From: Paludibacteraceae bacterium
GTDB lineage: Bacteria; Bacteroidota; Bacteroidia; Bacteroidales; Paludibacteraceae
Length of the DNA stretch: 64,000 bases
Direction: 5' to 3'
NCBI GenBank assembly: GCA_023227695.1
Contig: JALNVE010000002.1
Span: 13,767 to 77,766 of the forward strand
The position numbers were made by a program, and so were the translations under genes. This document shows positions 2,213 through 54,075 of this stretch, piece by piece. The first letter of the stretch is position 1; the number at the start of each line of letters is the position of its first letter. The notes beneath the pieces are model-generated. The model was not told the origin of the DNA, ran no database searches, and was given only the letters and a program-made list of their open reading frames with translations.

Positions 2213-2514
2213 ACCCTAGTTTCTCCGTTTTGAGTGGCTTCCTGTGCAATCCCATCCGTATTCATTTTCCAGTTTTGATAGATTTCGCCTTCTCCTTTTG
2301 GATCTCTTTTATCTTCCGGATTTTCGGAGTACGCGGTGCAACTGGTTCCGAAATCCTGTGTAATCGTTTCTATACCCTGAAATCTGACGAGATAATAAAA
2401 TTCAGTACAGTTCTTCCTTCTCATACAATTTAGACATCCTTTACCGCTTGATCGTTTTATCGTTCCTAGTTTTGGATAATAGGAAAGTTCAGGCATATAT
2501 CCGTTTACGTTCAT
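2209..2514 (-). CDS. hypothetical Cys-containing protein
   Basis: ORF track. It overlaps the downstream ORF by 4 nt. No family recognised. Confidence 0.45.
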   Translation of the reverse strand: MNVNGYMPELSYYPKLGTIKRSSGKGCLNCMRRKNCTEFYYLVRFQGIETITQDFGTSCTAYSENPEDKRDPKGEGEIYQNWKMNTDGIAQEATQNGETRV

Positions 2515-2525
2515 TCTTATTTTAC

Positions 2526-2783
2526 CTATGATAAGTTCGTTGTCAGTTCATAGAAATCATCTGTTTTCGTGTCATGAATTTCCAACACGCCGGATTCATT
2601 GTTGACTTGAAAGACATACTTCCCTATTTTTAATGCAGAAAGTTCTGTAATATCTTCTTCTTTTTGGGTTATAACACGATTCTCTCCGATATACGTTCTG
2701 ACTTCGGTCTCATAAACAGTATCTGCGTCCTTTTTTTCAAGGGCATGATATTGGGATTCCGAAAGATATATCTTTGTTTTCAT
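2526..2783 (-). CDS. hypothetical protein
   Basis: ORF track. It ends in TAG, with a back-up TAA two codons later. Confidence 0.45.
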   Translation of the reverse strand: MKTKIYLSESQYHALEKKDADTVYETEVRTYIGENRVITQKEEDITELSALKIGKYVFQVNNESGVLEIHDTKTDDFYELTTNLS

Positions 2784-3691
2784 TCTTTCATCCCCCTGCT
2801 AAAACCGTAGAAGGACCAATTTCCCGCTCCTGATGTAATGATCTGAACCTTATGTCCATATGTAACGATATCGATATCCCGATCAAGCATCTCCGTATCT
2901 ACTGCGTAAATTTCCTCTATAGGATTATTCCCTATTATTTTAGAACCCAATTCTTGGGTGTCCCTTACGCTGAAATATACCTTACCCGATTTAACCTTTC
3001 CGTTATGCCTGACACAATAGGTCCATTCATTTACCGTCAATTCCGTTGCTGACGTATATGCGTCATTCGTCACCGTCATGTTCACGGGTACTGTATTTGA
3101 CCATGAAAAATTAACCATAGTATTCCAATCAAGTCTGTAATTCCCAAGGATTACATTTTCTGCTTTCAGCGTTGAAATGCTTCCGTTCGTAAGACTTGAA
3201 AACATTACGGAATAATCATTGGTATCTATGTTCTGGTTCATTTCCACCCATAGAGTCCCGTTCACGGTGAGATTGGAAATAAATGCTTCTGGTTCGTATT
3301 GTCGGATAAAAGAAGTATCTCCCTGAAGAGTGACTTCTTTCATTCCGTTCGTTGTAACCATATAAGGTCTGGCATTGCTAACCACAAGGAATTCATAACT
3401 TCCATCTATGTTGATAAGCTTTTTAGATAATCCTTCAAATAAATATAAGAAGTTAGATGCGTTTATATATACATTACTGCCGTTATCTAGAAAAGAAATC
3501 GCTTTCAAATTCGTAACGACATTGTAATCCGCATCTAAATCATTTCTTAGTTTTCCGTTTTGAATGGGGAAGGATCTTGTCTGGGATTGACAAAAAAATG
3601 CCGTTAAAACAAAACAAAAAAACCCAAGAACAAGTTTACGGTTCTTCTTCAAAAGCCCATCCGCCTGCTGTTTTGGCAACATCATTGACAT
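2780..3691 (-). CDS. hypothetical protein with N-terminal hydrophobic signal/anchor
   Basis: The N-terminus KLVLGFFCFVLTAFFCQS is signal-like, and the remainder is Asn/Thr/Ser-rich and looks beta-rich. It could be a secreted or virion protein. No family recognised. Confidence 0.45.
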   Translation of the reverse strand: MSMMLPKQQADGLLKKNRKLVLGFFCFVLTAFFCQSQTRSFPIQNGKLRNDLDADYNVVTNLKAISFLDNGSNVYINASNFLYLFEGLSKKLINIDGSYEFLVVSNARPYMVTTNGMKEVTLQGDTSFIRQYEPEAFISNLTVNGTLWVEMNQNIDTNDYSVMFSSLTNGSISTLKAENVILGNYRLDWNTMVNFSWSNTVPVNMTVTNDAYTSATELTVNEWTYCVRHNGKVKSGKVYFSVRDTQELGSKIIGNNPIEEIYAVDTEMLDRDIDIVTYGHKVQIITSGAGNWSFYGFSRGMKE

Positions 3692-4290: not shown

Positions 4291-5001
4291 TTAAACTCCT
4301 TTGAACTTTTCTAAGATAAGATTCATCGCTGTTTCCTTATCAAGGACTTTACCTTTTTCAATCCATTCGTCTCCCTTCTCTTCAAGGAAAGACATTACTT
4401 CTTTGATTTTGGGTCCAGGTTTAATATCCAATATCTTCATAATTTCAAGTCCGTCTAAGATGGAATCGTTCTTCGTGACGGGTTTGATCGCTTTCACTTT
4501 TTCTATCTTTTCACGAATAGAAGGAATATTATTGCCTTTCGGTATCTTACCCTGTTCATCGGCGGCTGCCAAATCAACCACAGCATCTACAAGTTCTTCC
4601 CCTACTTCACGAATAAATTTACGTATTCCGGCTGTTCCTGCGTCATGCAGCGCGTGTGGGCGCATATGGTTTTCTACGATTTTTCTGACATTGCGAATAA
4701 CATCCGTATCAAATTTAAGTCTACGGCAAACGGCTTCTGCTATTTCTCCGCTTACCTTTTCATGGCCGTAACTGTGAATGGCACCGTCAATAAGTTCGGT
4801 TGTAGATGCTTTACCAGCATCGTGAAGAAGCGCAGCCAATTGGTTTTCAATACCAGGCTTTGAATTCTGCAAAACCATCATTGTGTGTTTTAAAGAATCG
4901 CCTTGTTTCAATACAACGACATCTGGATGACACTGTGAAGTATTAAACTTTCGACAATTTTTGCAATAACTATCTCTCAAACAATAATCTGATGGATTCA
5001 T
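4291..5001 (-). CDS. cca: CCA-adding enzyme (tRNA nucleotidyltransferase), detached C-terminal HD-domain piece
   Basis: HD-domain pattern HTMMVL...LAALLHDAGK...GHEKVSGEIA...ENHMRPH. It picks up the class II CCA enzyme sequence just after the point where the 6160-7971 ORF stops (G-x-x-Q...KF / ...HPD). Confidence 0.75.
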   Translation of the reverse strand: MNPSDYCLRDSYCKNCRKFNTSQCHPDVVVLKQGDSLKHTMMVLQNSKPGIENQLAALLHDAGKASTTELIDGAIHSYGHEKVSGEIAEAVCRRLKFDTDVIRNVRKIVENHMRPHALHDAGTAGIRKFIREVGEELVDAVVDLAAADEQGKIPKGNNIPSIREKIEKVKAIKPVTKNDSILDGLEIMKILDIKPGPKIKEVMSFLEEKGDEWIEKGKVLDKETAMNLILEKFKGV

Positions 5002-5004
5002 AAT

Positions 5005-6105
5005 CTATTCTCCAATAAATTCCAAACATCTTTTCAAAACGGTGTCTTTATCTTCCTTATAATCACTTTCCCATATAATCAAAAATTCGTATCCTTTTTC
5101 TTTGGCATTTTTTATTTTATTGCTATCGATGGTTTCGACTTCAGACGCTGTTCTGTTAGTATATACCTGTTTCCATTTCCGTTTCTGGTCTTCGGTTAAG
5201 TTTGGATTGACGTGAAATTTGTCTCCATTAAACTCGATCACCTTCTTTATATCTTCTATAACGAAATCAAAATTTCTATTAGTTCCACAAGAAAATTCAT
5301 GGTTAAGTTCTCCAAAATAAATTCTTTTATACTTGACTGATATGTTTTTATAAATTTCTTGAAAAAGAATTTGAGAAATCTTAGAATATGGAGATAAATT
5401 TCGGTTCAGCCAAATTTTTCTCTTATTTGTTTCTTTTCTGATTTTATCACAACGTTGTTGATATTTCCTTTCTCCGATTTCTTTTCCGTACTTTTTAACA
5501 AACCAATCAAGTTTGTATATTTTCGAGATATTGTTTCTCCAAGATTTATATCTTTCTAATCCCTTTTCTTGTCCTAAAATATATTGAAATCTTTCAAGTG
5601 GGGATAAACCTTTCATCTTCTGAGAAAAGATATAAGCTTTGCCTGAACTTCTATCTAAGTATTCTTTCTTTAAGATAATTTTCCCGAATTCTTTTTCATA
5701 GTCTTCTTTATTAAAGTCTTTATGTCTCCATCTTAAGTGTTGACAGAGATTAATATATGTTTTTCCACAAAGTTCACACCTAATTTTTTCGTGTTCATGA
5801 ACGTGGTGATCAATTGAAAAATTTTCCTTAATATAGTCGTCATACTTAATTTCCTTGTGACAGTTTTTGAGGTGTGTACCAAGTCCAGACATTGACTTCG
5901 TTTGTTTTCCACACAGTCTACATAAATGAAGGAATTCTTTCTTCTCTATATTCTTAATTATTATCCCATAGAATTTTAAGAAATAGTCACAATAATTGAG
6001 ATCATTTTTATGAACAGTTTTGATGTGAGTTCGTAGGACATTAAAAGAAGAATATGTTTTGCCACATAACTTACATTCAGTTGGAAAAGTTAATCCATAA
6101 TTCAT
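5005..6105 (-). CDS. free-standing homing-endonuclease-like protein (3x C2H2 zinc fingers + Vsr/DUF559-like PD-(D/E)XK domain)
   Basis: There are three C-x2-C-x12-H-x3-4-H fingers (CKLCGKTYSSFNVLRTHIKTVH and two more). The C-terminus FDFVIEDIKKVIEFNGDKFH...GYEFLIIWESDY has the Vsr-like nuclease pattern. I moved the start to ATG 6105, which follows the RBS AGAGGTGG; the track start at 6135 is a TTG. It sits between the two halves of the CCA enzyme. Confidence 0.65.
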   Translation of the reverse strand: MNYGLTFPTECKLCGKTYSSFNVLRTHIKTVHKNDLNYCDYFLKFYGIIIKNIEKKEFLHLCRLCGKQTKSMSGLGTHLKNCHKEIKYDDYIKENFSIDHHVHEHEKIRCELCGKTYINLCQHLRWRHKDFNKEDYEKEFGKIILKKEYLDRSSGKAYIFSQKMKGLSPLERFQYILGQEKGLERYKSWRNNISKIYKLDWFVKKYGKEIGERKYQQRCDKIRKETNKRKIWLNRNLSPYSKISQILFQEIYKNISVKYKRIYFGELNHEFSCGTNRNFDFVIEDIKKVIEFNGDKFHVNPNLTEDQKRKWKQVYTNRTASEVETIDSNKIKNAKEKGYEFLIIWESDYKEDKDTVLKRCLEFIGE

Positions 6106-6159
6106 AACCACCTCTGTTATGAACAGACATATCAAAAAGAATGTTAGTAGGCATCTTCC

Positions 6160-7971
6160 TCATTTAGGAACGAAATTCTTACAAACACAATTACATCCTT
6201 CCTGAAACTTTTCATTCTGTTTAACACCCTTCAAAGATTCAATCTCAGGGAAGATGTATTTTAAGAGTCCTGTTGAATCAAAGAATTTGATTGCCTTTTG
6301 AAGTTTTCCTAGCTTCATGATCTTAATAAGTTCATCTCTGATCCTTTCTTCTGAAATCGTCTGAATCCTAGAAGAATTGGCCTTGACCGCTTTCAAAACA
6401 GAAAGAGGTACAGTCCAATTGTATTTACAAATAAAGCGAACAAGACGAATCATACGAAGTGCATCTTGGTTAAGAATCTTGTTGAAATCAACGTCTGGAT
6501 GTCCTCTTAGAATCCCTTTTTGAATATCAGATTTGCTGACGCCTGTAAGGTCTATGAATTCTCCGTTACTCAAATCTTTCATCATCATATTCGTTGTGAA
6601 GTCGCGACGTTTTACATCTTCTCCCAAATCCGCAAATTCCGTACTTCTCTGTCTGCTGTTAGGATCAGGATAGCTTTCCTTCATAGTTTCGGCAAATTCA
6701 ATGACGGCACCTTTTGTCCTATATGTTTCGCCTTCGAAAATAATATCTTCCTTAAAGGTAATCTGCCAAATGGGATAATTTCCCATATTTATAGGGTTTG
6801 TCGTTTCCTTTGAAAACAAGGCATGAAGTTGTTTCGTCAGTTTTTCAGGGCCTCCTTTTATATCTATCACTATGTCTAGGTCTTTGGGAAGATTTTTAAG
6901 AATACTATCCCTAACATATCCTCCGACGGAAAAAGTATGATGCGAAAATTCAGTATAACGTAGAAAGTTTAAAAAGAATTTTTCAACCTCCTTTTCTGGC
7001 GATTTATGATTTTCGTTCATGAGTTCTTTCCCTTCGAAGCTCAGTTCCGTGACAGTTTTCAATTCTTTGCCGAGAAGAATGCGATAATAATATCCATTCT
7101 TCTTACAAAAGTCAATAGCTACTTTCGCTTTTGTTACAACTTCTTCAGACATCCATCCCTTTACTTCTTCAATAATTTTAACTTCATTCCTTATGATAAG
7201 GAAATCTGGAACATAATACGTTTTCAACCCAGAAGAATTAACATATGGGATTCTAATTCCGTGCTTCTTTGTCCACATTATTCCTTCTGATTCGTATTCT
7301 TTCATCTTATTTCTTTCATAAGACGAATCATACCATTCTCTCGTGCCATCTTTTTTGAAGAACCAACCAGTTTCCCAATTGTTTCGGTTGTGGTATTTCC
7401 CTTCTGAAAGATTGCGAGAATATGTTTCTATTCTTCTTTCTAGTCTTGTTTTGTCATCCCACATATGAAGATTAGACATAACTTCTGATCTTCTATGTTT
7501 TTCTTTTTCGGTATTACAAGCTAATTTTTGCTTGGTTCTAAATTCTTCATTTCTCATCGGATTGTTATCAGAAATTTTTTGGCGAACGTCTGGTCTTTTA
7601 GAAACATTATTATCTCCCGTTTGCATTTCTCTTTTTCGACCCTTCCAGAATAAAGAAATTTTTTCTTTGGACGTTTCTCTTTTCATAGGATTGTCAGAAA
7701 TCATTCTTTCCTTCATCCTCTTGATCTCTTCTTTCGATATTTTGTGATGACCAGAACAAAACCTTCTTCCATAAGATGTGATTTGACCACAACCACACTG
7801 ACAAACTTGATCCCATTCTTTGTTTAATCTTTTTCTTTCTTCTTCTTTGAACTTAAGATATTCTGATCGACAAATATTACAATTCTTTAGATGAGAGTTC
7901 CATCTTGAATGCCCGAATTCAATCCCACAAAAGGAAATCGATGGAAGATGGATTTTATAGACAGAAGCCAT
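6160..7971 (-). CDS. cca: in-frame fusion: PD-(D/E)XK (TnsA-like) endonuclease module + CCA-adding enzyme head/neck domain
   Basis: Residues ~1-320 have Cys/His clusters, NUMOD3-like basic repeats and YYVPDFLI...IIEEVKGW, a restriction-fold nuclease motif. Residues ~320-603 carry the Pol-beta nucleotidyltransferase head (FSVGGYVRDSIL...DLDIV) and neck (KRRDFTTNMMM). An internal ATG at 7020 with RBS GAAGGGAAAG could also produce the CCA head alone. Confidence 0.7.
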   Translation of the reverse strand: MASVYKIHLPSISFCGIEFGHSRWNSHLKNCNICRSEYLKFKEEERKRLNKEWDQVCQCGCGQITSYGRRFCSGHHKISKEEIKRMKERMISDNPMKRETSKEKISLFWKGRKREMQTGDNNVSKRPDVRQKISDNNPMRNEEFRTKQKLACNTEKEKHRRSEVMSNLHMWDDKTRLERRIETYSRNLSEGKYHNRNNWETGWFFKKDGTREWYDSSYERNKMKEYESEGIMWTKKHGIRIPYVNSSGLKTYYVPDFLIIRNEVKIIEEVKGWMSEEVVTKAKVAIDFCKKNGYYYRILLGKELKTVTELSFEGKELMNENHKSPEKEVEKFFLNFLRYTEFSHHTFSVGGYVRDSILKNLPKDLDIVIDIKGGPEKLTKQLHALFSKETTNPINMGNYPIWQITFKEDIIFEGETYRTKGAVIEFAETMKESYPDPNSRQRSTEFADLGEDVKRRDFTTNMMMKDLSNGEFIDLTGVSKSDIQKGILRGHPDVDFNKILNQDALRMIRLVRFICKYNWTVPLSVLKAVKANSSRIQTISEERIRDELIKIMKLGKLQKAIKFFDSTGLLKYIFPEIESLKGVKQNEKFQEGCNCVCKNFVPK

Positions 7972-24836: not shown

Positions 24837-25658
24837 CTACTTGACAGTTTCATACTCAAACCGCATATCTGTTATAATTCCGTCTATGCGAGGAAAATAA
24901 TATTGAGAACCTAAACAGTAGACATTAAGATTTTCATTATGCCATTCGGATCTCGAATGTGTGTGACCGCACAACCAAAGAAATTCATTTCGGGGATTGT
25001 TTTTGGAAAAGTCGGCGATAAATAGACCTGCTTCATGCCAGATATAAAATGGACTAGCATCTGAACCCTTAACAACTTCCATACAGCCGAAAGGTAATGG
25101 ATGACTCGTAATAATGATGTTTTTATATTTCTTCACCGCTTCTGAAAGAATTTCTTTGAGATCTTTCAACGCGTCTGATGCTCTCTTTTGAAAGGATTTA
25201 ATAACTTCCTGACGTGATTTTTTAATCAGGCTCAGATTTTCGATATATCGAAAATCATTCATTAACATGTTTAAATATGTCCCTTCCGGGATGATTTTCG
25301 CGTCATACCAGCTATCCACACCGATTAGACACGTTTCTTCATCAAGACGTATTGGACTAGATTCTGACAAATAAACAAGATTAGGAAAGTTCTTAACAGA
25401 CAGATGAATTATTTCATCTGTCCTTTCAAAACTACTATGATAATAATCATGATTGCCTGTGATGAAATAAACAGGAAACCCATTACAAGCTTCAGAAAGA
25501 TCTTTTAGATTTGATTCTAAACTTCGTCCATCTCCGATATCACCCGTAATAATGATCGGACACTTTGCCTTTCGTATGGAATTAAAAAATTTTCTCCTGA
25601 CCCCATTATTTATGTCGAAATTCAAGTGGATGTCAGACATAGCTAAAATTTTAAACAT
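24837..25658 (-). CDS. calcineurin-like metallophosphoesterase
   Basis: Motifs appear in the canonical order: MSDIHL, ITGDIGD, ITGNHDYY, ITSHP, CGHTHS. I moved the start to ATG 25658 behind RBS GAGGT. It ends in TAG. Confidence 0.75.
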   Translation of the reverse strand: MFKILAMSDIHLNFDINNGVRRKFFNSIRKAKCPIIITGDIGDGRSLESNLKDLSEACNGFPVYFITGNHDYYHSSFERTDEIIHLSVKNFPNLVYLSESSPIRLDEETCLIGVDSWYDAKIIPEGTYLNMLMNDFRYIENLSLIKKSRQEVIKSFQKRASDALKDLKEILSEAVKKYKNIIITSHPLPFGCMEVVKGSDASPFYIWHEAGLFIADFSKNNPRNEFLWLCGHTHSRSEWHNENLNVYCLGSQYYFPRIDGIITDMRFEYETVK

Positions 25659-25818
25659 ATTTACCTCATTTAAAGCGTAGAAAACATTTACATTTAGGGA
25701 CAGAATTTCCATCCCTAAAACGTTCATCCGAATTTCGGCATTAGGAATCAATATTTATCAAGGAATCTGATAATCAGTATAGATAATGAATTGTTTTTTT
25801 TAAAAACAAGATTAATCT

Positions 25819-26323: not shown

Positions 26324-27601
26324 TTAAATTTTAGACTGATAATATTCTGAGAACATCGACGTAATCCTTTCATCTTTTAACCAAGAAAAACAGGTTAAAA
26401 GGTTATTGCTCTTGTTCATTTCCAAAAGTATGGACATAACAATATCTATTGGAATCCCGTAATCAAAAAGAAAAGAATAAAAATTATCCGCCCGTTCTTG
26501 TGTAAATTTAATTTTTTCAGAAATTATAGCAGATAACAATCTGTATGAAATAATACTGATGATATCCAAACGAAGAACTTCTTTAGATATCAGTTTCTTT
26601 ATCTTTTCCTTTGAAAATTCAGGGGCTGTAAGAATATCTTCAGGACTAAGGAAAACGCGTTCCCCTGAAAGCATATATGTCGCGAAAGAATCAGTAAATT
26701 CATTGTCCAAGAGCATATTCATTATGTTTTTGATATTTTTGATGTTTTCTCTCGATTCCATCATAACATTCAGATCAATCCCGCTTGATTGAATCATTCG
26801 GAAAGCTTCTGTGATTGTTCTTGGATTCGTTAGAAGCTTTCCGAACATCATTTCCGGATAATATGCGCAAAATCCCAATACGTTTTTATCCAACCCTTCC
26901 TCATCCGCCCAATTTATCCATTCCTTGATATCAAAACCGAATGTCACATGCCGCATTCTTGTAAGAATGGCAGGATCTAATTCCGTAACCTGATAGTCCT
27001 GTTGTCCTGGATTCGCTGTAAGAACGATATGACAGCCTTTTGGAAGTTTCCATCCTATCGTAGAATAGGTTTGGAAGAGAGGCATGCATGCTTTTAAAAC
27101 GCGTAGATTGGCCCTATTGAAATCATCGACAAGAATAATCGTCGGCTGGCAATATCCTTTTTCATCTGGTTCAGGCACCCATTCCGGTACCGCAGTAAAC
27201 TGTTTTACTCCCCGATCTTGACAAACTGAATATCCGAGTTTTTCCGTATAAAGTCCGATACAGGATTCCGGCACCCACTTTTCTTCTTTTCCTTTCCTAA
27301 CACAGAGATGCCTATCTGGCATGCCGATAATATCACCCACTTCTTCTATATCCGCAAGAGGAATATATATGATTTTAAATCCGGAATAATCTTTTCCCCG
27401 ATACTTTATTCTTTCTGTTTCCAAACATCTGACAAGACTTGTTTTACCGATTCCAGCACGACCCCAAATGACTGTGGAAAATCTTTCTCCAGGTCTTTTT
27501 TCTTCCGCTTCCGTATCTGAAACAAAAGCCTGTAATAGTTTTTCCGTGATTCCCTTAAGAGACAAAACCGGCCCGTAACACCCTTCATAATTTTCTTCCA
27601 T
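26324..27601 (-). CDS. AAA+ ATPase (MoxR/AAA_5-like)
   Basis: Walker A WGRAGIGKTS, Walker B TIILVDDFNRA, then VLTANPG...LDPAILTRM. Confidence 0.7.
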   Translation of the reverse strand: MEENYEGCYGPVLSLKGITEKLLQAFVSDTEAEEKRPGERFSTVIWGRAGIGKTSLVRCLETERIKYRGKDYSGFKIIYIPLADIEEVGDIIGMPDRHLCVRKGKEEKWVPESCIGLYTEKLGYSVCQDRGVKQFTAVPEWVPEPDEKGYCQPTIILVDDFNRANLRVLKACMPLFQTYSTIGWKLPKGCHIVLTANPGQQDYQVTELDPAILTRMRHVTFGFDIKEWINWADEEGLDKNVLGFCAYYPEMMFGKLLTNPRTITEAFRMIQSSGIDLNVMMESRENIKNIKNIMNMLLDNEFTDSFATYMLSGERVFLSPEDILTAPEFSKEKIKKLISKEVLRLDIISIISYRLLSAIISEKIKFTQERADNFYSFLFDYGIPIDIVMSILLEMNKSNNLLTCFSWLKDERITSMFSEYYQSKI

Positions 27602-27614
27602 ATTTCATCCTTTC

Positions 27615-28223
27615 CTATTTCAAATAGACTTTCCCGTTCCTGTTTTCTAGAAAAAATCCTCTTTCCGCCTGCTGTAAAATGCTTTCGTTATGACTAAGCA
27701 TAATAATCTGCATTTCCATTTTTTCACAAAGACCGCGTAAAAACATTCCCACATTCTCCGCAATTTCGGAATCCACATGTTTATAGGCTTCGTCAAGAAA
27801 CAGAATATCCCCGATATCCTGACTTCCTTTTAAAATAAGAGCCCGAAGAGGAATACATATACTGTCCGAAATCCCCCCTCCGTGACCGCTGATATCTCTT
27901 TTTACTTCATAATCCCCGTATGTCTTTTTGACTTCTATCTCTAAACAAGAACGATTATTCTTTTCTCCGTAATTTATCAGAAAAGAATACTGGGTTCCGT
28001 ATAGCGTTCGGAGAACTTCCGTTATAACAGCTTCTATCTTTTCTTTATAGATATGACGCTTTTTTAGACTTAATTCTTCTATAGTATGGAAAAGAGTCTT
28101 CACTACATTCAGCTTTTCGGCATTCTTCGAAATGAGTTCTTCTTTTTCTTTTATCTCTTTTTGATAGATTTTGTTTGATCTTCTTCTTTCTTCAATACTT
28201 TCCACAAGTTCTTCTTTTGTCAT
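27615..28223 (-). CDS. SMC/ABC-ATPase C-terminal-half-like protein lacking a P-loop
   Basis: It has a coiled-coil N-terminus, a signature-like SGHGGGISD, Walker B ILFLDEAYKHVD and IIMLSHN. There is no GxxxxGK[ST] anywhere in the 202 aa. It ends in TAG. Confidence 0.5.
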   Translation of the reverse strand: MTKEELVESIEERRRSNKIYQKEIKEKEELISKNAEKLNVVKTLFHTIEELSLKKRHIYKEKIEAVITEVLRTLYGTQYSFLINYGEKNNRSCLEIEVKKTYGDYEVKRDISGHGGGISDSICIPLRALILKGSQDIGDILFLDEAYKHVDSEIAENVGMFLRGLCEKMEMQIIMLSHNESILQQAERGFFLENRNGKVYLK

Positions 28224-29167
28224 ATTTCACCTTTATTCAAAATTCTATAATGTTTATAGAAAACGGGTTTCCCTTTTCTAATGAAAAGGCTTTAAATACC
28301 ATTACCTAAAAAATATTTTTTATCCTTAAACAGAAACCGTGAATACCCGGCTTTCTGATCCTGATCATTCAAGTTCACTTCGTTTTCTTTCATGAATCAG
28401 GATTCTTTTTATTATTTAAAAACGATTTTGATTAAATCACACAGGGGATCAGGGACCATCAAATCGTACGAAGTACATTTGGGGAAATCCCCGTATGTGT
28501 GATATCGGTCGGTGAGTTTGAGGGAATGAAAGAACAGATTTTCCCCCTTTACAAGGAAGAATAAGTATTATCTGTTTCATTCATTCATTCTATTTACAGG
28601 ATTCTATATTCACAGTGTTAAGTAAATATAGAATCCTGATGTGCTAATCGTATAGGTTGAGAATCGGTATACGCTTTCGCAGACTGAGAATGGAATCTAA
28701 CCATATCTCTGTATGCCCCTCGTGCAGCGGGTGTCCCCCACAAACCTACACTAGTCTATTAGGCAGACTAGGCATACCTTCTCCATATCCACACAGATTT
28801 TGTTAATCACTGTCGCTGGTCAGAATACCGTTACGGGTAAAAGTCCTATAAATTCACGGGTTTGTGTTCCACCATAAATCCATAGATTATAGAGTTCATT
28901 AAGCCAACCGGGTTATCCCTTTTGGCTCCGCTCCTTCACGCGAAGGCCGTGTTCCAAGTATCTTCACCTTATTATAGGGTCTTGTCCGTGTCTTACATCT
29001 TTCTGTTTTCAACAGTGTAGATACGGTCTTGAATTATGATACGGAAATTCTTTAATGCTTCCTTGGCGTTACGCCCCCGAAACTTATTATCAAGGCTGTC
29101 GGGAATCCTTTTCATCACTTTATTTTAAGACCACTTTATTTTACAAGGTTTTATCCGTTACAGAATA
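28224..29167. ncRNA. ORF-free, GC-enriched, hairpin-dense region: candidate large structured RNA (class and strand unassigned)
   Basis: The track shows no ORF of 60 aa or more on either strand across 944 nt, and stops are frequent in all frames I translated. My hand GC counts are 32/60 (28681-28740) and 30/60 (28921-28980), against 22/60 and 24/60 in nearby coding lines. There are many stable hairpins, including a 13-bp perfect stem at 28597-28638 and a nested 11+10-bp hairpin at 28438-28501. Confidence 0.35.
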
Positions 29168-32014
29168 TCACTTGATTGTTTTCCAATAGAAATCGTGTTC
29201 TGTTTTTTTATAGTCATCTGTCAAAAAGCGTATTTTTATCTTTGAGACTAAAGAATCTGAAAGGGAAGGGAAATATGCGAAGAAGACTTTGGTTTTCACG
29301 TTTTCTTCAAGAGAAGTCTTTTCCGAATACAAAATCATTCCTTTCGGAAGTCTGTTTATATCGGTAATAGAAAAGGAAGACATTGTCAAAGGAACAGAAT
29401 CTGATGTCAGGGAAAAAGTAAAAGGTCTTAACATCCTTGTGGAAATGAAATCACCGAGTTTTAATCCGGAAATATTCGTATAGCTGTGAAAGAAAAAGAT
29501 GTTTGTTCCTGAAACCGCTGTAAAAACATATCCGTTGGTAGAAGAAAGACCGGAAATGTCGGTAGTCAATTCAGAATCTTTCTTTATATAGATATTTGAA
29601 ATTGAACAAGACGTAAAAACGTTTGAATTTTCTGAAAACCCCGAAAAGAAATAAGGAGGTTTCATATCTTCTTCCAAATCATATCTTATGGAAAGAGAAG
29701 CATTGGAATTTCCTCTGTTCGAAATCACGATATTGTCGATACCGAAACTTTCAGGAGATTGCATGAAAAGTCTTTTCCCTCCAGAAGAAAATGTCTCTGA
29801 ATATGAATTATAAACCCTGGTTGTAGGAGAAGATTTGTTTCCCGACTTAAAAAAGTAGGAAAAGTTTAGACACGGAGGAATATTCGTAATGACGGCTTCA
29901 TTTTCCGCACTCCAGTGTATGTCATTCAATTTGTGTTCCGTATACATATTCAAATTAGATTCACAGATGAATAAACTAATATCAGACTGTTGGGAAAAGG
30001 GTTCACGATAGAGATAAAGATTATAAGGGGGAGGATGATGCATGTTTGTTCTGCAAAAGGTATAAACATTATCATTGGTTGTGTTGATAACCCATCCATA
30101 AAAATCAGTAGAAACCCCACTGGGGGAGGTCAGCCTTCCTCTATAATGATAATTCCCATTGGTATCAGATGAAGAATATCGATTAGAATCTTTTTCCAAT
30201 TGAATGATGCTTGATTCTTTGAATTTGAATGCTTCTGCTGTTTTGACCAAACCGAGAGGATATGATTTAAAGGAAAGTCCGTTTGAAACACTAATTTCAT
30301 CTGGATAAGGATGAAGGGTTGATTGACCAGGAAACAGAACAGAAGCAGGATCTCCGAAAAGGGCATTGGAATAGAATATAAAATGAAGATATCCAAGTTG
30401 AAGAGAAAAATATCCAACCATCCTCTCTTTTGAATCAGTATATACGTCTCCCAGGAGATGGCTGGTTTCTCTTAGCATATCATCAAAAAACAGGCGCATA
30501 AGGAAAACGCTATAATACGGATTGTTGTTGCTATACCACCCGTCCCTTTGGTTGACGACGGCGGCCCATATTCCGTTGCTAGAAGAAAGCATCGCTTCTG
30601 TCCAGCATTTTAATCCGGTCGTTTCAGCCTTGTCAAAACCACCTATAGAACAGGCAACGCTATAAAAAAGAAAAGTAACGGAATTTGTGATTTCTTCCGG
30701 AATGAAATTATAATTATCTATACCATAACAGGATCTATCAGCACCGTGTCCGATATGAGTTATGAGAGAATATCCTGAATTAAAATGTTTTTTGCCGGTA
30801 TTTTGATCAACGATATTGGTAAAAAATGTGTCATAACTTATTTTATTCCCGAACCTATTGGTAACACCCATCGAATTGAAAGTTAATGTCTGATTAGGAA
30901 ACAGGAAAAGAATATTGTTAGAGCTGCTTATTCCCTTTTGAATTTCTTCCCCGCAAAACATAAATTTCTCATCTTTTAGGCTTTCTTCCCTTTGAATTGT
31001 TTTTCTTATCATATTCTCAGCGTCTTGTTTTTCCCATGCGGGGAGTCTCCCGATTTTAATTTCAGAGTAACAATCTATAAAATTGCCGTTTTCTCCGTCA
31101 TTCTCTTCTCCGTAAATCCCGTTTTGGTTATTGTCAAAATCTCCATCTAGGTTTCCGTAATATCCTTGGTCTTGAGGCATATAAAGCGTTCCTATAAAAC
31201 CGGAATAGAGAAACATCCTGACTGGCACTTGTTTTGTTCCTCCGAGGATAAGAAGATACCGAGTTCCCCAATTTAAATAAGCGTCTTTGCAGAATTCTCG
31301 GATTTTCATTTGACCGTCAGTCCCAATATAATTATTATATATCCAGTCCACAGTAACGAGGTTTGTGGAAAACCCTTTTGAATGGCGATATTCTAATAAA
31401 GATTGAGGGCTGTATTCTGAATCGGCATATACCAGGCTTGATGTCGTTAGGATAACGTATTCATGGTTACCTCTTTCAAGCATCGAAACAGGAGGAGAAA
31501 TTGACTTTGAAACAGGACTAGAAAACGTTTTTATCGTAAACCTAACTGAATCGAAATGAATATATTCAAGTTTTGAACGAGAATAAGAACACGGGGAAAA
31601 CTTAAAAAGGAGATAATTAGTACCGTTTTTCCTTTGTTCTGTCCAGAAAACGGGTTTTTGAACAGGATATTCTGCATCAAAGATACCGTTAGTAAAAGAA
31701 GACGTTCCTGTCCTGAAATCATTATACGGGATTTCAGCCGTTTCTATCAAACCAGAGAGTTTGTATTTATGACTGGTTAAAACTTCAAAATCTATAGAGT
31801 CAACCATTTCTTCTGATTTCAACACCTCTCGGAAAACGATAGTCGGCAAAATCGGCAATCCAGGTTCAGGGATATTGATACAGTTTTTGACATTGACTGA
31901 AACCGTATCCCCGAATGTTTTAAAATCCGGCGGTTGAAATTTTTCTTCCCAATTTTTTTCTAAAGCAGAAGAAAAAAGAGGCAAAAAAAACAGAAGACTA
32001 ATAAGAATATTCAA
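29168..32014 (-). CDS. secreted protein with peptidase C25 (gingipain)-like domain
   Basis: It has a signal peptide (MNILISLLFFLPLFSSA). The C25-like pattern is YVILTTSSL...RYLLILGGTKQVPV...LITHIGHGADRS (candidate catalytic His)...FLFYSVACSIGGFD (candidate catalytic Cys). The ~400-aa C-terminal region is unassigned. Confidence 0.6.
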   Translation of the reverse strand: MNILISLLFFLPLFSSALEKNWEEKFQPPDFKTFGDTVSVNVKNCINIPEPGLPILPTIVFREVLKSEEMVDSIDFEVLTSHKYKLSGLIETAEIPYNDFRTGTSSFTNGIFDAEYPVQKPVFWTEQRKNGTNYLLFKFSPCSYSRSKLEYIHFDSVRFTIKTFSSPVSKSISPPVSMLERGNHEYVILTTSSLVYADSEYSPQSLLEYRHSKGFSTNLVTVDWIYNNYIGTDGQMKIREFCKDAYLNWGTRYLLILGGTKQVPVRMFLYSGFIGTLYMPQDQGYYGNLDGDFDNNQNGIYGEENDGENGNFIDCYSEIKIGRLPAWEKQDAENMIRKTIQREESLKDEKFMFCGEEIQKGISSSNNILFLFPNQTLTFNSMGVTNRFGNKISYDTFFTNIVDQNTGKKHFNSGYSLITHIGHGADRSCYGIDNYNFIPEEITNSVTFLFYSVACSIGGFDKAETTGLKCWTEAMLSSSNGIWAAVVNQRDGWYSNNNPYYSVFLMRLFFDDMLRETSHLLGDVYTDSKERMVGYFSLQLGYLHFIFYSNALFGDPASVLFPGQSTLHPYPDEISVSNGLSFKSYPLGLVKTAEAFKFKESSIIQLEKDSNRYSSSDTNGNYHYRGRLTSPSGVSTDFYGWVINTTNDNVYTFCRTNMHHPPPYNLYLYREPFSQQSDISLFICESNLNMYTEHKLNDIHWSAENEAVITNIPPCLNFSYFFKSGNKSSPTTRVYNSYSETFSSGGKRLFMQSPESFGIDNIVISNRGNSNASLSIRYDLEEDMKPPYFFSGFSENSNVFTSCSISNIYIKKDSELTTDISGLSSTNGYVFTAVSGTNIFFFHSYTNISGLKLGDFISTRMLRPFTFSLTSDSVPLTMSSFSITDINRLPKGMILYSEKTSLEENVKTKVFFAYFPSLSDSLVSKIKIRFLTDDYKKTEHDFYWKTIK

Positions 32015-32765
32015 GCCAACCTCTCCAGTTTTGTCCGTCTAAAGATTCGAATCCCAGAACATAGGTAGTTCCTTGACTGTCTAATTCTGGGATTTCACCA
32101 TATACCCAAGTGATATTCGGAAAAAAGGTGACGGTTCCGCTTCCTTTTATCAGATGGAGATGGAAACTTGAAAATTTCCCTTCAACGGTTTCGGGGATTT
32201 CAAATGAAACATTATGATTCATATTTGAGACGCAATAGACAGCATTGGAAGAAAGGATAATTTTATTCGTGTATAAGACGTTCGGCAAAACATATTGATA
32301 GCTGTTGGTCGTAGAAACGGCTCCGATCAATTCTGAAGTGACGAAATGAGCATTCGTTTCAGAAACGTGACGGGAAAAAGAAGAATTGATTTCAGAAACC
32401 GCTTGTTCAAAAGTTTGATCGTCGATGAATTTACAGATGATGTTCGTCTGTACAATCGGGATTCCTTCTATTATAACCGTTTCTGTTCCGAAAAGAGTCA
32501 AATTGGTTGTAGAAAATCTCGTGTCTATCCTTAAAAAGAGATTAGTCAGATTGTCTGTAAGAACCTGTGAATAACCTCTATCCATATAAGAAACGAACCC
32601 TCCGTTAAGCATTTCTTGTAGGTTTGATCTGCTTTCCAAGCTTAATATTCTAGAATTGAAACTATTAATAGCCAAGACGACATCTAATGTTTCTGATTTT
32701 GAATGGAACGGGGAAAAGGAAAGGATTACGAAAAAGATAAGTGATTTTAGCGTGGATTGATTCAT
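31998..32765 (-). CDS. secreted hypothetical protein
   Basis: I moved the start to ATG 32765 (RBS GAGGT), which gives MNQSTLKSLIFFVILSFSPFHS, a signal-like N-terminus. It ends in TAG and overlaps the start of the C25-like gene. Confidence 0.5.
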   Translation of the reverse strand: MNQSTLKSLIFFVILSFSPFHSKSETLDVVLAINSFNSRILSLESRSNLQEMLNGGFVSYMDRGYSQVLTDNLTNLFLRIDTRFSTTNLTLFGTETVIIEGIPIVQTNIICKFIDDQTFEQAVSEINSSFSRHVSETNAHFVTSELIGAVSTTNSYQYVLPNVLYTNKIILSSNAVYCVSNMNHNVSFEIPETVEGKFSSFHLHLIKGSGTVTFFPNITWVYGEIPELDSQGTTYVLGFESLDGQNWRGWLEYSY

Positions 32766-32817
32766 TTTTTTTACCTCAGATATGTAGATTCTATCAAAAA
32801 AAGACAACTTTACTATA

Positions 32818-32876: not shown

Positions 32877-33932
32877 ATGACTTATTATGATGCTCTACTA
32901 AACTGTTTTTTCAAGGGGATTACCGGAAGCCGGGCTTATGGCACGAATTTACCGACCAGTGATACGGACTACCGTGGAGTGTTTATCCTTCCGACATCTG
33001 AGAGGATCGGATTGTTTGATCTCCCGAATGAAACCGTAAATCCAGAAGAGAAAGATGACAAACTGTATGAGTTGAAAAAGTTTTTCGATCTTGCGATTAA
33101 AGCAACTCCGAATATCATCGAACTTCTGTGGTTGCCTCCTGATTGTATTATCAAGACCTCTAATGAATGGGAGAACATCCTAGCCAATCGCAACATGTTT
33201 ATTACAAAGAAGGCGGTGTTCACCCATAGCTGTTATGCCATTTCCCAATTGAAAAAGGCAAGAGGTCAGAATAAACTTATCAACAACCCGATGCCTGTAG
33301 AGAAGCCGTCCCGTTTGGATTTCTGCTGGGTTTCCGTCAAAGAAGGCAGCAAGACAGTTACAATTCCGATTTCTGAAACAGACATTGATCTTTCAACGTG
33401 TAGGGCGACGGCGATTCCACATCTTACTAACTGCTACAACATCTTTCCAAACGGGAAAGGAGTCTTCAAAGGGGATATGTTGGTTTTTGAGAGCGTTCCC
33501 AAGAAAGAAGAGGACACCTGTTTGGGAATGTTGACCTATCAGGAAGACGGGTTTAAGTCAGCTTTGACCAAGTGGAAGGAATATTGGGATTGGATGAAGA
33601 ACAGAAATCCTGATAGGTGGAAAAATCAAGAAAAAGGTCTTGATTTTGACGAAAAGAATATTTTACATTTGATCAGAATCCTGATGTCTGCAAAGAACAT
33701 CGTGGATAACCGTGAACCGATTGTCAGATTTCAAGGCAAGGATTTGGAATTCCTTCGAAAGATAAGAGAGGGATATTTCACTTATGAAGAATTGATGGAT
33801 GTCGCGAATCCTCTTTCTGATTATATCGAAGGGAAGATGAACGGTGTAATTGACCTTCCGGATTCATGCAATATGAAGAAGGTAAACCGTCTTTTCATGG
33901 ACACAATCACTTCGTGGGAAAGGAACAAGTAA
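32877..33932 (+). CDS. Pol-beta-superfamily nucleotidyltransferase, RlaP (RNA-repair-associated) type
   Basis: GSRAYGTNLPTSDTDYRGVFILP...DDKLYELKKFFDLAIKATPNIIELLW matches the PF10127/RlaP-like N-terminal pattern. Confidence 0.65.
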   Translation: MTYYDALLNCFFKGITGSRAYGTNLPTSDTDYRGVFILPTSERIGLFDLPNETVNPEEKDDKLYELKKFFDLAIKATPNIIELLWLPPDCIIKTSNEWENILANRNMFITKKAVFTHSCYAISQLKKARGQNKLINNPMPVEKPSRLDFCWVSVKEGSKTVTIPISETDIDLSTCRATAIPHLTNCYNIFPNGKGVFKGDMLVFESVPKKEEDTCLGMLTYQEDGFKSALTKWKEYWDWMKNRNPDRWKNQEKGLDFDEKNILHLIRILMSAKNIVDNREPIVRFQGKDLEFLRKIREGYFTYEELMDVANPLSDYIEGKMNGVIDLPDSCNMKKVNRLFMDTITSWERNK

Positions 33933-52527: not shown

Positions 52528-52530
52528 GTT

Positions 52531-52779
52531 ATGAATATTTTTGATTGGTTTAAGAATCTGAACAAACCGGAAGAAGTTAAGATTTGTGCAAAATGCAATT
52601 GGTATCGTCTTCAGGGTACCCGACTAAATTGCGGTAATCCCGAATATCTTGAAAGGAATATCATTACCGGGGAGCTTCGCGAAGCTCCTTCTTGTAGTGA
52701 AATGAGGGCTACGGCCCGGCGTTGTGGATATACAGGAAAAGGATTTAGCCCTATTGACAAGACCGAAGAAAAGGAGTAA
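52531..52779 (+). CDS. hypothetical Cys-rich protein
   Basis: ORF track. It has CAKCNWY...CGNPEY...CSEM...CGY cysteines. Confidence 0.45.
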   Translation: MNIFDWFKNLNKPEEVKICAKCNWYRLQGTRLNCGNPEYLERNIITGELREAPSCSEMRATARRCGYTGKGFSPIDKTEEKE

Positions 52780-52782
52780 TAT
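52754..52782 (+). promoter_or_regulatory. sigma-70-type promoter (TTGACA-17-TAATAT)
   Basis: The -35 is at 52754-52759 and the -10 at 52777-52782. It lies 31 nt before ATG 52813. Confidence 0.5.
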
Positions 52783-52812
52783 ACAGACATCAAACAAAGG
52801 AAAGATCTATCT

Positions 52813-52950
52813 ATGAAATGCGAAAGAAGTAGAAAGAGGAATCTTCTGAAAATCTGGGGAATGAAAGCCTTGGGAAACGGAAAATCTTTTGAAGAAGTGG
52901 CAAAGACTATTGGTAAGATGATGAAAAAGACCTTGAAGCCCTTGGACTAA
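52813..52950 (+). CDS. small HTH-like protein (45 aa in the zero frame; possible -1 frameshift extension to 53054)
   Basis: My translation is MKCERSRKRNLLKIWGMKALGNGKSFEEVAKTIGKMMKKTLKPLD*. The -1 frame is open from 52917 to 53054 with no start codon of its own until a late ATG. Confidence 0.35.
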   Translation: MKCERSRKRNLLKIWGMKALGNGKSFEEVAKTIGKMMKKTLKPLD

Positions 52951-53050
52951 GTCTGGCTTCTCCGACAGAATTGTTAGACAAAGAGCTCTTAGACGCTGTC
53001 AATAGTGAAGATATGTCAAAAGCAATAGAAGACTATATTAAAAACCCGAA

Positions 53051-53079
53051 TTGACAGATTTCGATAAAAGTGCTATTAT
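53051..53079 (+). promoter_or_regulatory. sigma-70-type promoter (TTGACA-17-TATTAT)
   Basis: The -35 is at 53051-53056 and the -10 at 53074-53079. It lies 25 nt before ATG 53104. Confidence 0.6.
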
Positions 53080-53103
53080 TGATTGAATAAAAGGAGGAAA
53101 GAC

Positions 53104-53253
53104 ATGAATGGTATGAATAAGATTCAGAAGCAGTTGGAATACGCAGGTTATGACAATGCAGTTGCAATCGCTACCAATGCGGAAATCGCAGCGGGTGCGG
53201 CTTGCGGTCAGCTTGCTATTATCAACAACCGTACAGATGAACGTGGTGCGTAA
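53104..53253 (+). CDS. small protein (49 aa)
   Basis: It has a consensus-like promoter and the RBS AAAGGAGGAAA. My translation is MNGMNKIQKQLEYAGYDNAVAIATNAEIAAGAACGQLAIINNRTDERGA*. It is below the ORF-track size cut-off. Confidence 0.4.
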   Translation: MNGMNKIQKQLEYAGYDNAVAIATNAEIAAGAACGQLAIINNRTDERGA

Positions 53254-53378
53254 GAAACCAAATAAAACGTAAAGGAAAGTGAAGCTATGAAGTAGGTACT
53301 CAAACCGCCTTAAAGTCTCTTTGTTGATGTTGCGATAACGGTAGTCAAAAAACTTAACAACTAAACAAGGAGATTATC

Positions 53379-53678
53379 ATGAAGATTATCACGAGGAAAA
53401 TTGACGAACTGAAACAAAGAAGGAATGAATTGGCTTGTGAAATCAAGTCAATGCGGGCTGGACGTAAAGAATCCCTAAAAAAAGTATCTGGTTTTCAATG
53501 TAAACTAGCTTACAAGAGTATGGAAAGTAGGTTGCTACATATAGCCTATTGTGAGCTAATGGGCCGCACAAGAGACGAGATTGAAAAGCCAAGGCTTGGA
53601 AATGCTCCAAACGAAGCGATGATTGAACAGATTAAGGAGCAGTATGCTTGGGAAACCCAACAGGGGGTTCAGCAATGA
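53379..53678 (+). CDS. hypothetical protein
   Basis: ORF track, with RBS AAGGAG. Its stop overlaps the ATG of the PTH2-like gene (ATGA). Confidence 0.5.
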   Translation: MKIITRKIDELKQRRNELACEIKSMRAGRKESLKKVSGFQCKLAYKSMESRLLHIAYCELMGRTRDEIEKPRLGNAPNEAMIEQIKEQYAWETQQGVQQ

Positions 53679-53971
53679 AAAAACTGTATGTCTTGGTGAG
53701 GAAAGACCTAACGCCGTCATATCAGGCGGTTCAAGCTGGACATACTGTTGCAGAATGGTTGCTTCGGCATTAGGGCCAAACGGAATGGGAAAACGGAACC
53801 CTAATTTATCTTGGTGTCGGAAACCTTGATGAACTTGAAAATTGGGTTAAGAAACTAGACTTCAAGGGAATGGAATGTACTGAATTCATAGAACCGGACA
53901 TCGGGAATCAAAGAACAGCCATTGCCTGTCTAAGTGACGGAAAGGTCTTTTCAAATCTGAAGTTGCTCTAA
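53675..53971 (+). CDS. peptidyl-tRNA hydrolase PTH2-like protein containing one in-frame TAG (53771-53773)
   Basis: My translation is MKKLYVLVRKDLTPSYQAVQAGHTVAEWLLRH-TAG-GQTEWENGTLIYLGVGNLDELENWVKKLDFKGMECTEFIEPDIGNQRTAIACLSDGKVFSNLKLL*. Both sides of the TAG are in one frame ((53771-53675)=96), and together they fit the PTH2 fold pattern. Confidence 0.65.
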
Positions 53972-53998
53972 AACAAGCCCCTGTAAAAAGGGGCGATT

Positions 53999-54075
53999 GC
54001 CTCGGTAGCTTAACGGTCAGAGCGGCGATCCCTAAAATCGCGTCAGTAGGAGTTCGAATCTCCTACGAGGCACCA
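53999..54075 (+). tRNA. tRNA with anticodon CUA (amber suppressor candidate), CCA encoded
   Basis: Hand fold: acceptor GCCUCGG/ACGAGGC (G7-A66 mismatch), U8, D arm GCUU-AACGGUCA-GAGC, anticodon arm GCGAU-CCCUAAA-AUCGC, variable GUCAGU, T arm AGGAG-UUCGAAU-CUCCU, discriminator A, CCA. Oddities are C at position 33 and a 6-nt variable region. A hairpin (gcccct-gtaaaa-aggggc, 53977-53994) immediately precedes it. Confidence 0.7.

Follow-up and report, generated by a model that had tools for sequence, protein, structure and literature searches.

A conserved, covarying large RNA encoded beside SbcC-like ATPase genes in a clade of huge phages

The 64,000-nucleotide (nt) stretch analysed here (contig JALNVE010000002.1, positions 13,767 to 77,766; assembly GCA_023227695.1, Paludibacteraceae bacterium), hereafter the window, is part of a huge phage, with genes for a portal protein, a large terminase, an RtcB ligase and a CCA-adding enzyme. 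Positions 28224-29167 form a gap between two of its genes, and the core of this gap (28436-29110, minus strand) holds a multi-domain RNA structure that, as sequence comparison shows, is conserved, covaries and stays at a fixed locus in related phages. A first, sequence-only reading had proposed a large structured RNA in this gap, and the homologs described below, a conservation above that of the neighbouring genes and the covariation of helices bear the proposal out. We consider it very probable that the region carries a functional gene for a structured RNA, encoded on the minus strand; the best overall explanation, which we favour with less assurance, is a stand-alone, highly structured non-coding RNA that would act in trans as a folded particle.

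Conservation and covariation of the RNA

The gap is bounded by two minus-strand genes, a C25-peptidase-like open reading frame (ORF) ending at 29168 and a 202-amino-acid (aa) ATPase starting at 28223. Its 944 nt contain no ORF of 60 aa or more, the longest having 49 aa, and make up the largest stretch of this kind in the window (the runner-up has 585 nt); the absence of ORFs noted in the sequence-only reading thus stands, as do the frequent stops seen there in the translated frames, all three stop types being present in each of the six frames. Stop reassignment was also checked, because the window carries an amber-suppressor tRNA, and no long ORF emerges in the gap with TAG, TGA or both decoded as sense. 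The GC richness ascribed to the gap applies, to a modest degree, to the 675-nt core (0.423, top 7% among segments of equal size), and not to the gap as a whole, which at 0.380 equals the window mean (0.376). Against dinucleotide shuffles, the minimum free energy (MFE) of the gap corresponds to z -4.35 on the minus strand and z -5.34 on the plus strand, and none of 20 shuffles folds as well.

Because a nucleotide search of GenBank phages (blastn in distant mode, gap against 50,697 phages) gave no match, the flanking ATPase genes were taken as anchors for the homolog search. Five homologs were compared: the window itself; L001, a 304-kb IMG/VR phage contig, which is the closest relative and has the gap at the same place; L020 and L027, short Logan contigs with much more divergent copies, whose large-ATPase homologs are 39-40% identical to the window protein; and L042, a fifth contig with a shorter copy. 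Copies of the window's own lineage in other samples are 100% identical. The core measures about 675 nt in the window, about 670 nt in L027 and at least 470 nt in L020. Identity to L001 is 86% in the 5′ domain of the RNA, 97% in the central domain and 91% in the 3′ domain, compared with 69-72% for both ATPase genes and 70% for the C-terminus of the C25 gene; two 50-nt blocks of the RNA (28701-28750 and 28901-28950) are 100% identical, and indels between window and L001 lie in loops and arm tips.

The order of genes is kept as well: gene X, RNA, small ATPase, large ATPase, cell-wall hydrolase and a Metallophos (SbcD-like) gene, the last being preceded by intervening ORFs in some contigs. Gene X was compared among four contigs, namely the window, L001, L020 and L027; at the corresponding position L042 has a 208-aa gene. 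In the four contigs compared, the C-terminus of gene X and the N-terminus of the ATPase are both conserved, and in L020 and L027 the gene X homolog adjoins the RNA. In four of the five homologs the small ATPase directly follows the RNA; the fifth, L020, has two uncalled small ORFs in between. The distance from the RNA to the ATPase start varies widely, being short in L042 and exceeding 400 nt in L020. The length of ORF-free sequence upstream of the ATPase was also considered as a crude measure and was dropped, being confounded by spurious ORFs.

Helices were derived by sequence comparison and encoded on window/L001 alignments in three covariance models that contain only these two sequences: R1 for the 5′ domain (76 base pairs [bp], 29115-28775), R2 for the central domain (37 bp, 28782-28637) and R3 for the 3′ domain (50 bp, 28586-28432), about 180 pairs being modelled in the core. 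R1 recovers L020 with 75.5 bits (E 4e-23) and L027 with 65.1 bits (E 1e-19); R2 scores 40 bits against each of them (E ~5e-10), and R3 finds L027 1140-1287 with 36 bits (E 2e-7) and has no significant match in L020. In L042, with filters off and 801 nt searched, R1 scores 21 bits (E 1.4e-7) and R2 16 bits (E 3e-5). The models find no second copy in the window, where the RNA is single-copy.

In the 5′ domain 90.5% of the cells are paired and 35 of the 76 pairs are changed on both sides, as against 35-45% paired cells and 3-10 such pairs in controls with the partners slid by 1-3 columns. The corresponding values for the central domain are 96.4% and 16 of 37 pairs, against 25-55% and 0-5 pairs, and in neither domain did any of 500 shuffles, a control that ignores phylogeny, reach the observed values. 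For the 3′ domain, comparison of L027 with the window gives 20 identical pairs, 4 changed on one side, 18 changed on both sides and 2 broken; RNAalifold on window and L001 yields 215 pairs, all of which hold, with two-sided changes in 4 and one-sided changes in about 19. A MAFFT alignment of four sequences misaligned the variable arms, giving a poor RNAalifold result, and was replaced by an alignment guided by the covariance models; MAFFT also set the pseudoknot region one column out of register, and its pairs were checked directly instead. A long-range helix suggested by RNAalifold, GGUGA/UCACC (28967-28963 with ~28516-28512), fits L027 (UUACC), does not fit L020 and was left out. Homologs and covariation were also what the sequence-only reading had named as a check on its proposal; both were found, and the region shows neither a lack of conservation nor the decay of a gene.

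The RNA is assigned to the minus strand, on which it is co-directional with the flanking genes. The one-sided changes between window and L001 are of the GC-to-GU and AU-to-GU kind, and G-U cells outnumber A-C cells by 28 to 8. MFE z scores of the sense strand lie between -3.7 and -5.4 in all five homologs; the antisense strand folds clearly less well in three of them and about as well in the other two. This wobble and folding evidence for the minus strand is suggestive, not decisive.

Further copies were sought by several routes. Exact scans of IMG/VR with motifs of the RNA returned the 304-kb relative and chance matches (L021-26, L034), which were dismissed by eye or with model R1; a motif scan of JGI metagenomes found that phage alone, and those of GTDB genomes gave no matches and then three by chance. 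The exact-motif scans relied on CCCURUAAUAAGGUGAA and under-sample the family, because this motif is missing from homolog L042. Farther relatives of the ATPase pair are either tightly packed at this place or without a model match (L016-19, L028-30), or have no model match (L036-41). The family is probably larger than the five copies found, since the small-ATPase clade that co-occurs with the RNA has about a dozen more members on short contigs (P0026-P0036). We regard the RNA as a vertically inherited gene of one huge-phage clade.

Anatomy of the RNA and its neighbourhood

The elements of the RNA and of the sequence that follows it are given below from 5′ to 3′.

28436-29110, minus: structured non-coding RNA core, covered by R1-R3, with homologs in L001, L020, L027 and L042
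29076-29110, minus: 5′ H-type pseudoknot, both stems complementary in all five homologs with differing sequences
29110-29107 with 29095-29092, minus: pseudoknot stem S1, AAGG with CCUU (variants CAGGG/CCCUG, AAGGA/UCCUU, GCGG/CCGC)
29103-29099 with 29080-29076, minus: pseudoknot stem S2, CCCGA with UCGGG (variants CAUAC/GUAUG, CCGG/CCGG, GGAUC/GAUaCC)
Within the pseudoknot, minus: A-rich loop 3, GAUAAYA
29065-29075 and 29043-29062, minus: small hairpins GGCG-UAA-CGCC and GGAAG/UUUCC, 81-90% paired, weaker than the other helices
28986-29026, minus: stepped hairpin CCGU.UCU.ACA.CUGUU-GAA-AACAG...ACGG, 7 pairs changed on both sides
28963-28979, minus: invariant motif CCCURUAAUAAGGUGAA, identical except for R in window, L001, L020 and L027, missing in L042
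28937-28951, minus: hairpin CACG/CGUG
28901-28928, minus: hairpin GAGCCAA..GGG-AUAA-CCC..UUGGCUU (GAGCAAG/CUUGCUU in L020 and L027, GAGCGAG/CUCGCUU in L042)
28781-28894, minus: three-way-junction domain, its closing helix CUCUAUA/UAUGGAG (helix 11 of R1) 100% paired, both sides being changed in 6 of its 7 pairs
28845-28886, minus: long variable hairpin of the first three-way junction (helix 12 of model R1), 12 of 15 pairs changed on both sides
28826-28839, minus: hairpin UACC-CGUAAC-GGUA, without counterpart in L001, L020 and L027; in L042, GNRA-capped GCC-GUAA-GGC
28793-28813, minus: hairpin ACAG/CUGU with UAACA loop
28711-28777, minus: second three-way-junction domain, GUAUGCC/GGCAUAC enclosing two hairpins, 100% identical to L001
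28752-28770 and 28730-28746, minus: the two inner hairpins of the second junction, UAGUCU/AGACUA and GGU(uu)GU-GGGGG-ACACC
28686-28709, minus: hairpin GAGA.AUGG/CCAU.UCUC, 100% paired, 5 of 8 pairs changed on both sides
28642-28681, minus: helix UGCGA/UAGCA enclosing CGUAUA/UAUACG (helix 5 of R2: 4 of 5 pairs changed on both sides); ACGAUU is conserved in the region 28642-28709
28597-28638, minus: 13-bp perfect hairpin, a length-variable arm, 18 nt shorter in L001 with its base kept
28436-28586, minus: 3′ domain, in which helix GAUGAA.../...UUCAUUC encloses UUCUUCCUU-GUA-AAGGGGGAA (28524-28586)
28436-28503, minus: long hairpin AUCACACA...UGUGUGAU of the 3′ domain, preceded by the linker CAAACUC..ACCGAUA
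28359-28402 and 28331-28357, minus: two tail hairpins, kept in L001 with loop indels, not found in L020 or L027
28272-28289, minus: small hairpin CCUUUUC-N4-GAAAAGG, about 45 nt before the ATPase start codon, in window, L001, L004 and L005

Every helix listed in the sequence-only reading was found where it had been placed, and most of them, namely those at 28438-28501, 28597-28638, 28649-28673, 28751-28771, 28933-28946, 28986-29026 and 29065-29075, are conserved, covarying parts of one RNA. The extent proposed there, the entire 944-nt gap, has to be narrowed: the core takes up about 675 nt, and 28224-28435 (about 210 nt) consists of the tail hairpins and the upstream region of the ATPase. A recurring CGUAACG had also been pointed out. 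Its copy GGCGUAACGCC (29065-29075) is kept as GYGUAAC in all five homologs; the other copy sits in the hairpin at 28826-28839, which is missing from three of the four relatives, and this peripheral arm appears to be optional.

In stem S2 of the pseudoknot 4 of 5 pairs are changed on both sides. The stepped hairpin has GACA/UGUC in L001 for UACA/UGUA in the window and is missing in L042, and CCCURUAAUAAGGUGAA never varies among its four carriers, so it yields no covariation signal on its pairing. In the helices of the second junction 92-100% of the cells pair and 7 pairs have changed on both sides; the G-run loop of this junction is conserved as GGGG (GGGU in L042). Junction and loop sequences of the three-way-junction domains are near-invariant (GCGAC, GUGGGGAU, the G-run loop and ACGAUU). 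At the site of the 13-bp hairpin (28597-28638), L020, L027 and L042 have long hairpins of unrelated sequence, as read from their sequences. In L042, 29 nt replace the 107 model positions that hold the stepped hairpin, the invariant motif and the CACG hairpin, and L020 has no detectable 3′ domain; these natural variants outline a minimal core of about 350 nt. We also would like to mention that a hairpin of L042, CCUGUUUGAAAAACAGG (4940-4960, plus), resembles the tip of the stepped hairpin; it lies 3′-terminally in the gap, just ahead of the ATPase start.

The tail hairpins (28331-28402) could possibly represent the 3′ end of the RNA, a terminator or processing signals. No U-tract follows them, and a hairpin of the same CAGAA...UUCUG form is also present in L004. 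The small hairpin at 28272-28289 is absent in L020, L027 and L042; it is probably part of the ATPase upstream region rather than of the RNA, and may serve the ATPase gene as a lineage-specific signal for regulation or processing.

The genes and the tRNA that bear on the interpretation are the following.

27615-28223, minus: small ATPase, 202 aa, Walker-B/signature half of a split SbcC/SMC-like ATPase (phrog_15167 ATPase and SbcC-like C-terminus matches)
26324-27601, minus: large ATPase, 425 aa, Walker-A half
24837-25751: Metallophos (SbcD/Mre11-like) gene, following the ATPase pair
29168-32014, minus: C25-peptidase-like gene (Pfam Peptidase_C25, 1.2e-38)
31998-32807: gene X
53999-54075, plus: the only tRNA of the window, anticodon CUA (amber suppressor; ARAGORN label 'Pyl'), 25 kb from the RNA

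The Walker-B/signature half is encoded ahead of the Walker-A half, an order common to all relatives examined, and relatives of the small ATPase carry PF02463 SMC_N and bear the source annotation 'SbcCD ATPase subunit'. Of the C25 gene, which is intact in the window, L001 retains N- and C-terminal remnants of 157 aa and 86 aa (4363-5100), and L020 and L027 lack it. The gene looks like a recent, lineage-specific insertion, placed between gene X and the RNA and already in decay in one lineage.

Some further observations were made along the way. The two uncalled small ORFs between RNA and ATPase in L020 (1518-1759 and 1753-1977, plus) are Cys-rich and possibly encode zinc ribbons, and 500 nt without a called gene separate the two ATPase genes in the same contig (2577-3075). 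The suppressor tRNA lies 1 kb upstream of the RtcB-type RNA ligase (55089-56516, plus), which together with the CCA-adding enzyme and an RlaP nucleotidyltransferase forms an RNA-repair toolkit in the window (genes including 6160-7971, minus, and 32877-33932, plus). In L042 the RlaP gene (1566-3638, minus) encodes 690 aa with a faint LAGLIDADG match, a possible intein or homing-endonuclease insertion. TAG ends 7 of the 59 long ORFs of the window, in which no convincing TAG read-through gene was seen. ORFs 4291-5001 and 5005-6135 (minus) share a frame with one TAG between them and become a 614-aa ORF with TAG as sense; this fused ORF may be due to chance or be a suppressor-dependent read-through product. 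Just upstream of the suppressor tRNA, 52528-53998 comprises about 1.5 kb without an ORF of at least 100 aa and without an Rfam match at the gathering score.

Proposed role and rival explanations

As we picture it, the RNA would be transcribed with or within the leftward gene block, and the transcript would fold into a compact particle that works in trans during infection, be it as an RNA scaffold, a ribonucleoprotein (RNP), an RNA-only assembly or a catalytic RNA. Action in trans rather than in cis seems to us the likelier of the two, because the distance to the ATPase start is highly variable, with two possible small ORFs in between in L020; because the RNA persisted when a gene was inserted upstream of it in the window's lineage; because its most conserved parts are internal junctions and not the end near the start codon; and because farther relatives keep the ATPase pair without room for the RNA. 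A specific scaffold or self-assembly role is our leading guess, but can be put forward only tentatively and by analogy. Equally speculative is the idea that the RNA is the founding member of an undescribed class of large ornate RNAs in this huge-phage clade, its fold, with the 5′ pseudoknot and two invariant three-way junctions, doing a new biochemical job; this might be the building of RNA-only higher-order structures, comparable to the cages of ROOL and GOLLD, or the work of a ribozyme or RNP acting, together with the split SbcC/SbcD-like nuclease, on nucleic-acid ends.

Several points weigh against a stand-alone, trans-acting RNA particle. Scans for sigma-70-type promoters and for terminators remained at chance level, no Bacteroidota-type TAnnTTTG motif was seen upstream in the window, and the strict linkage to the SbcC-like ATPase would fit a cis or operon-specific role equally well. 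ROOL often adjoins tRNA islands; the RNA here is not beside tRNA genes, as the only tRNA of the window is 25 kb away. As to the structure itself, the five lineages, of which two are close and four well separated, are too few for statistics of R-scape grade, the pair counts come from alignments fitted to the model structure, so that the percentages of paired cells are inflated, and the structure was drawn with all sequences in view. The stronger arguments are the slid-partner controls and the recovery of divergent copies, with their pairing intact, by models built without them. Scaffolding, assembly or catalysis, finally, would be roles proposed by analogy with ROOL and GOLLD (PMC12286853).

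A giant cis-acting leader of the SbcC/SbcD-like operon, controlling termination, processing, stability or translation and possibly using the pseudoknot to sense a ligand or protein, is an unlikely alternative. In each of the five homologs the small ATPase follows the RNA on the same strand (in four of them directly), hairpins stand between its core and the start codon, and the promoter and terminator scans detected no independent signals. H-type pseudoknots with an A-rich loop 3 are common sensors of ligands or ribosomes, and the 5′ pseudoknot, with its A-rich loop 3, is of this type. However, the variable spacing to the start codon, the relatives that carry the same ATPase pair without the RNA and the position of the best-conserved parts far from the start codon all argue against a leader, the hairpins beside the start codon are lineage-specific, and a conserved structure of 470-675 nt by far exceeds any bacterial leader known to us. 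We rate as more improbable still a new large ribozyme, either self-processing or acting on nucleic-acid ends, in which the conserved junctions would form the active site. Size, a multi-domain fold and near-invariant junction and loop nucleotides usually hint at catalysis, and the phage carries the RNA-end-processing enzymes RtcB, CCA-adding enzyme and RlaP; yet no Rfam ribozyme family matches, there are no exon-like flanks and no split gene, the neighbours being complete, and the RNA is single-copy and not mobile.

There is very little to recommend the idea of a highly divergent GOLLD or ROOL escaping recognition by the Rfam models. The phage niche, the similar size and the ornate multi-helix fold with pseudoknots would suit it (PMC12286853), but neither family was listed by the permissive search (E<=10) of 1.2-kb slices from two copies, the RNA is not near tRNA genes, and these phages are binned with Bacteroidota (a Paludibacteraceae metagenome-assembled genome), which are not the usual hosts. 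Nor do we give much credence to an element working at the DNA level, such as a replication origin, packaging site or recombination hotspot with inverted repeats acting as DNA. The region is indeed non-coding, hairpin-rich, highly conserved and beside recombination-nuclease genes, both strands of the window's copy fold better than shuffles, and cumulative GC skew turns within it (minimum ~29000-29200), a profile that offers no argument against an origin. Against a DNA site, compensatory pairs frequently involve G-U that would be A-C on the opposite strand (the 28 against 8 given above), antisense folding is clearly weaker in three of the five homologs, and no iterons, tandem repeats or AT-rich unwinding core occur in the conserved part; because pairing is kept with wobble pairs, and because nested multi-helix junctions and a pseudoknot are features of RNA and not of DNA sites, we do not take the region for one. 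The reading as a decayed or recoded protein gene, to which the amber-suppressor tRNA of the phage and the decay of the neighbouring C25 peptidase in a relative might have pointed, is effectively refuted: stops occur in six frames, no ORF appears with TAG and/or TGA as sense, conservation of the region exceeds that of the adjacent functional genes, and its substitutions compensate one another in pairs.

Comparison with known RNA families

To our knowledge, the large RNAs described from bacteria and phages with complex conserved folds are very few, namely rRNA, RNase P RNA, tmRNA, group I and II introns, OLE, GOLLD, ROOL and raiA. Each new large RNA has opened a fresh line of work, the RNA-only nanocages of ROOL and GOLLD being an example. 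The RNA presented here adds a distinct fold from huge phages of anaerobic-digester metagenomes, with Rad50/Mre11-like nuclease genes as a syntenic anchor and with natural deletion variants that lack one sub-domain (L042) or the 3′ domain (L020). It is short enough for in vitro transcription, which makes tests of oligomerisation, catalysis and protein partners feasible. RNA families that are poor in motifs and low in copy number escape surveys demanding several matches in one database. In a large IMG/VR survey of phage structured RNAs, a family had to be represented by three distinct IMG/VR regions, and our motif scans found the RNA in only one IMG/VR contig; no prior description of it was found in the literature searched.

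Known families were compared with cmscan against Rfam 15 (4227 families), at the gathering score for the whole window and at E<=10 with permissive filters for slices of two divergent copies (window 28100-29300 and L020 800-2000, both strands). No credible match to GOLLD, ROOL, OLE, raiA, HEARO/omega RNA, introns, tmRNA, RNase P or any other family was obtained at E<=10 in the two copies; the matches listed were chance ones far below the gathering score (symR, AfaR, tp2, miRNAs, U6atac and others), none of them common to both. ROOL was equally absent at the gathering score across the entire window. This agrees with the sequence-only reading, which had recognised no RNase P, tmRNA, group II domain V or riboswitch by eye and had left the choice between a member of GOLLD or ROOL and a new RNA, of which the latter fits better. 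ARAGORN likewise reported no tmRNA in the window.

Introns, RNase P RNA and tmRNA are of comparable length and also have several domains; the CR-I and CR-V motifs of RNase P RNA are absent here. Group I and II introns were considered and rejected, with no match to Intron_gpI, Intron_gpII or group-II-D1D4 at E<=10 and no interrupted host gene. Both neighbours are complete (window, L001, L020, L027), and therefore the RNA is not an intron; in the window a whole extra gene moreover stands between gene X and the RNA. Nor is it a mobile element, since it is single-copy and syntenic. The GAGC hairpin (28901-28928) superficially resembles domain V of group II introns, from which it differs by a symmetric internal loop, the lack of a catalytic-triad G-U and a length of 28-29 nt instead of 34 nt. 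With OLE and raiA motif RNAs the present RNA shares the size class and strongly conserved junction nucleotides between covarying helices; however, those are chromosomal RNAs of Bacillota and Actinomycetota, with known protein partners in the case of OLE, whereas the RNA described here is phage-encoded and matches neither model.

The closest resemblances are to the large ornate RNAs of phages. Many members of GOLLD (RF01998) exceed 800 nt, and the family has one well-conserved part, at the 3′ end, and one variable part. A division into conserved and variable parts is found here too, 28937-29026 and the 3′ domain being dispensable in some homologs. Differently from GOLLD, there is no covariance match, there are no adjacent tRNAs and no linker tRNA, and the conserved part is central, the 3′ domain being the part lost or diverged in L020, unlike the universally conserved 3′ region of GOLLD. 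ROOL (RF03087) is an ornate RNA of about 0.6 kb with pseudoknots, encoded by phages or prophages and without a known protein partner (PMC12286853, PMC5737381), and both ROOL and GOLLD self-assemble into RNA-only, homo-oligomeric nanocages (PMC12286853). The present RNA shares with ROOL its size class, an ornate multi-helix fold with a pseudoknot and a phage origin (portal, terminase, IMG/VR relative), and differs from it by the absence of a covariance match at E<=10, the order of helices, the conserved motifs, the phage clade and the SbcC-like ATPase context. Judged by sequence and predicted structure, it would thus be a large ornate phage RNA by kind and a member of none of the known families.

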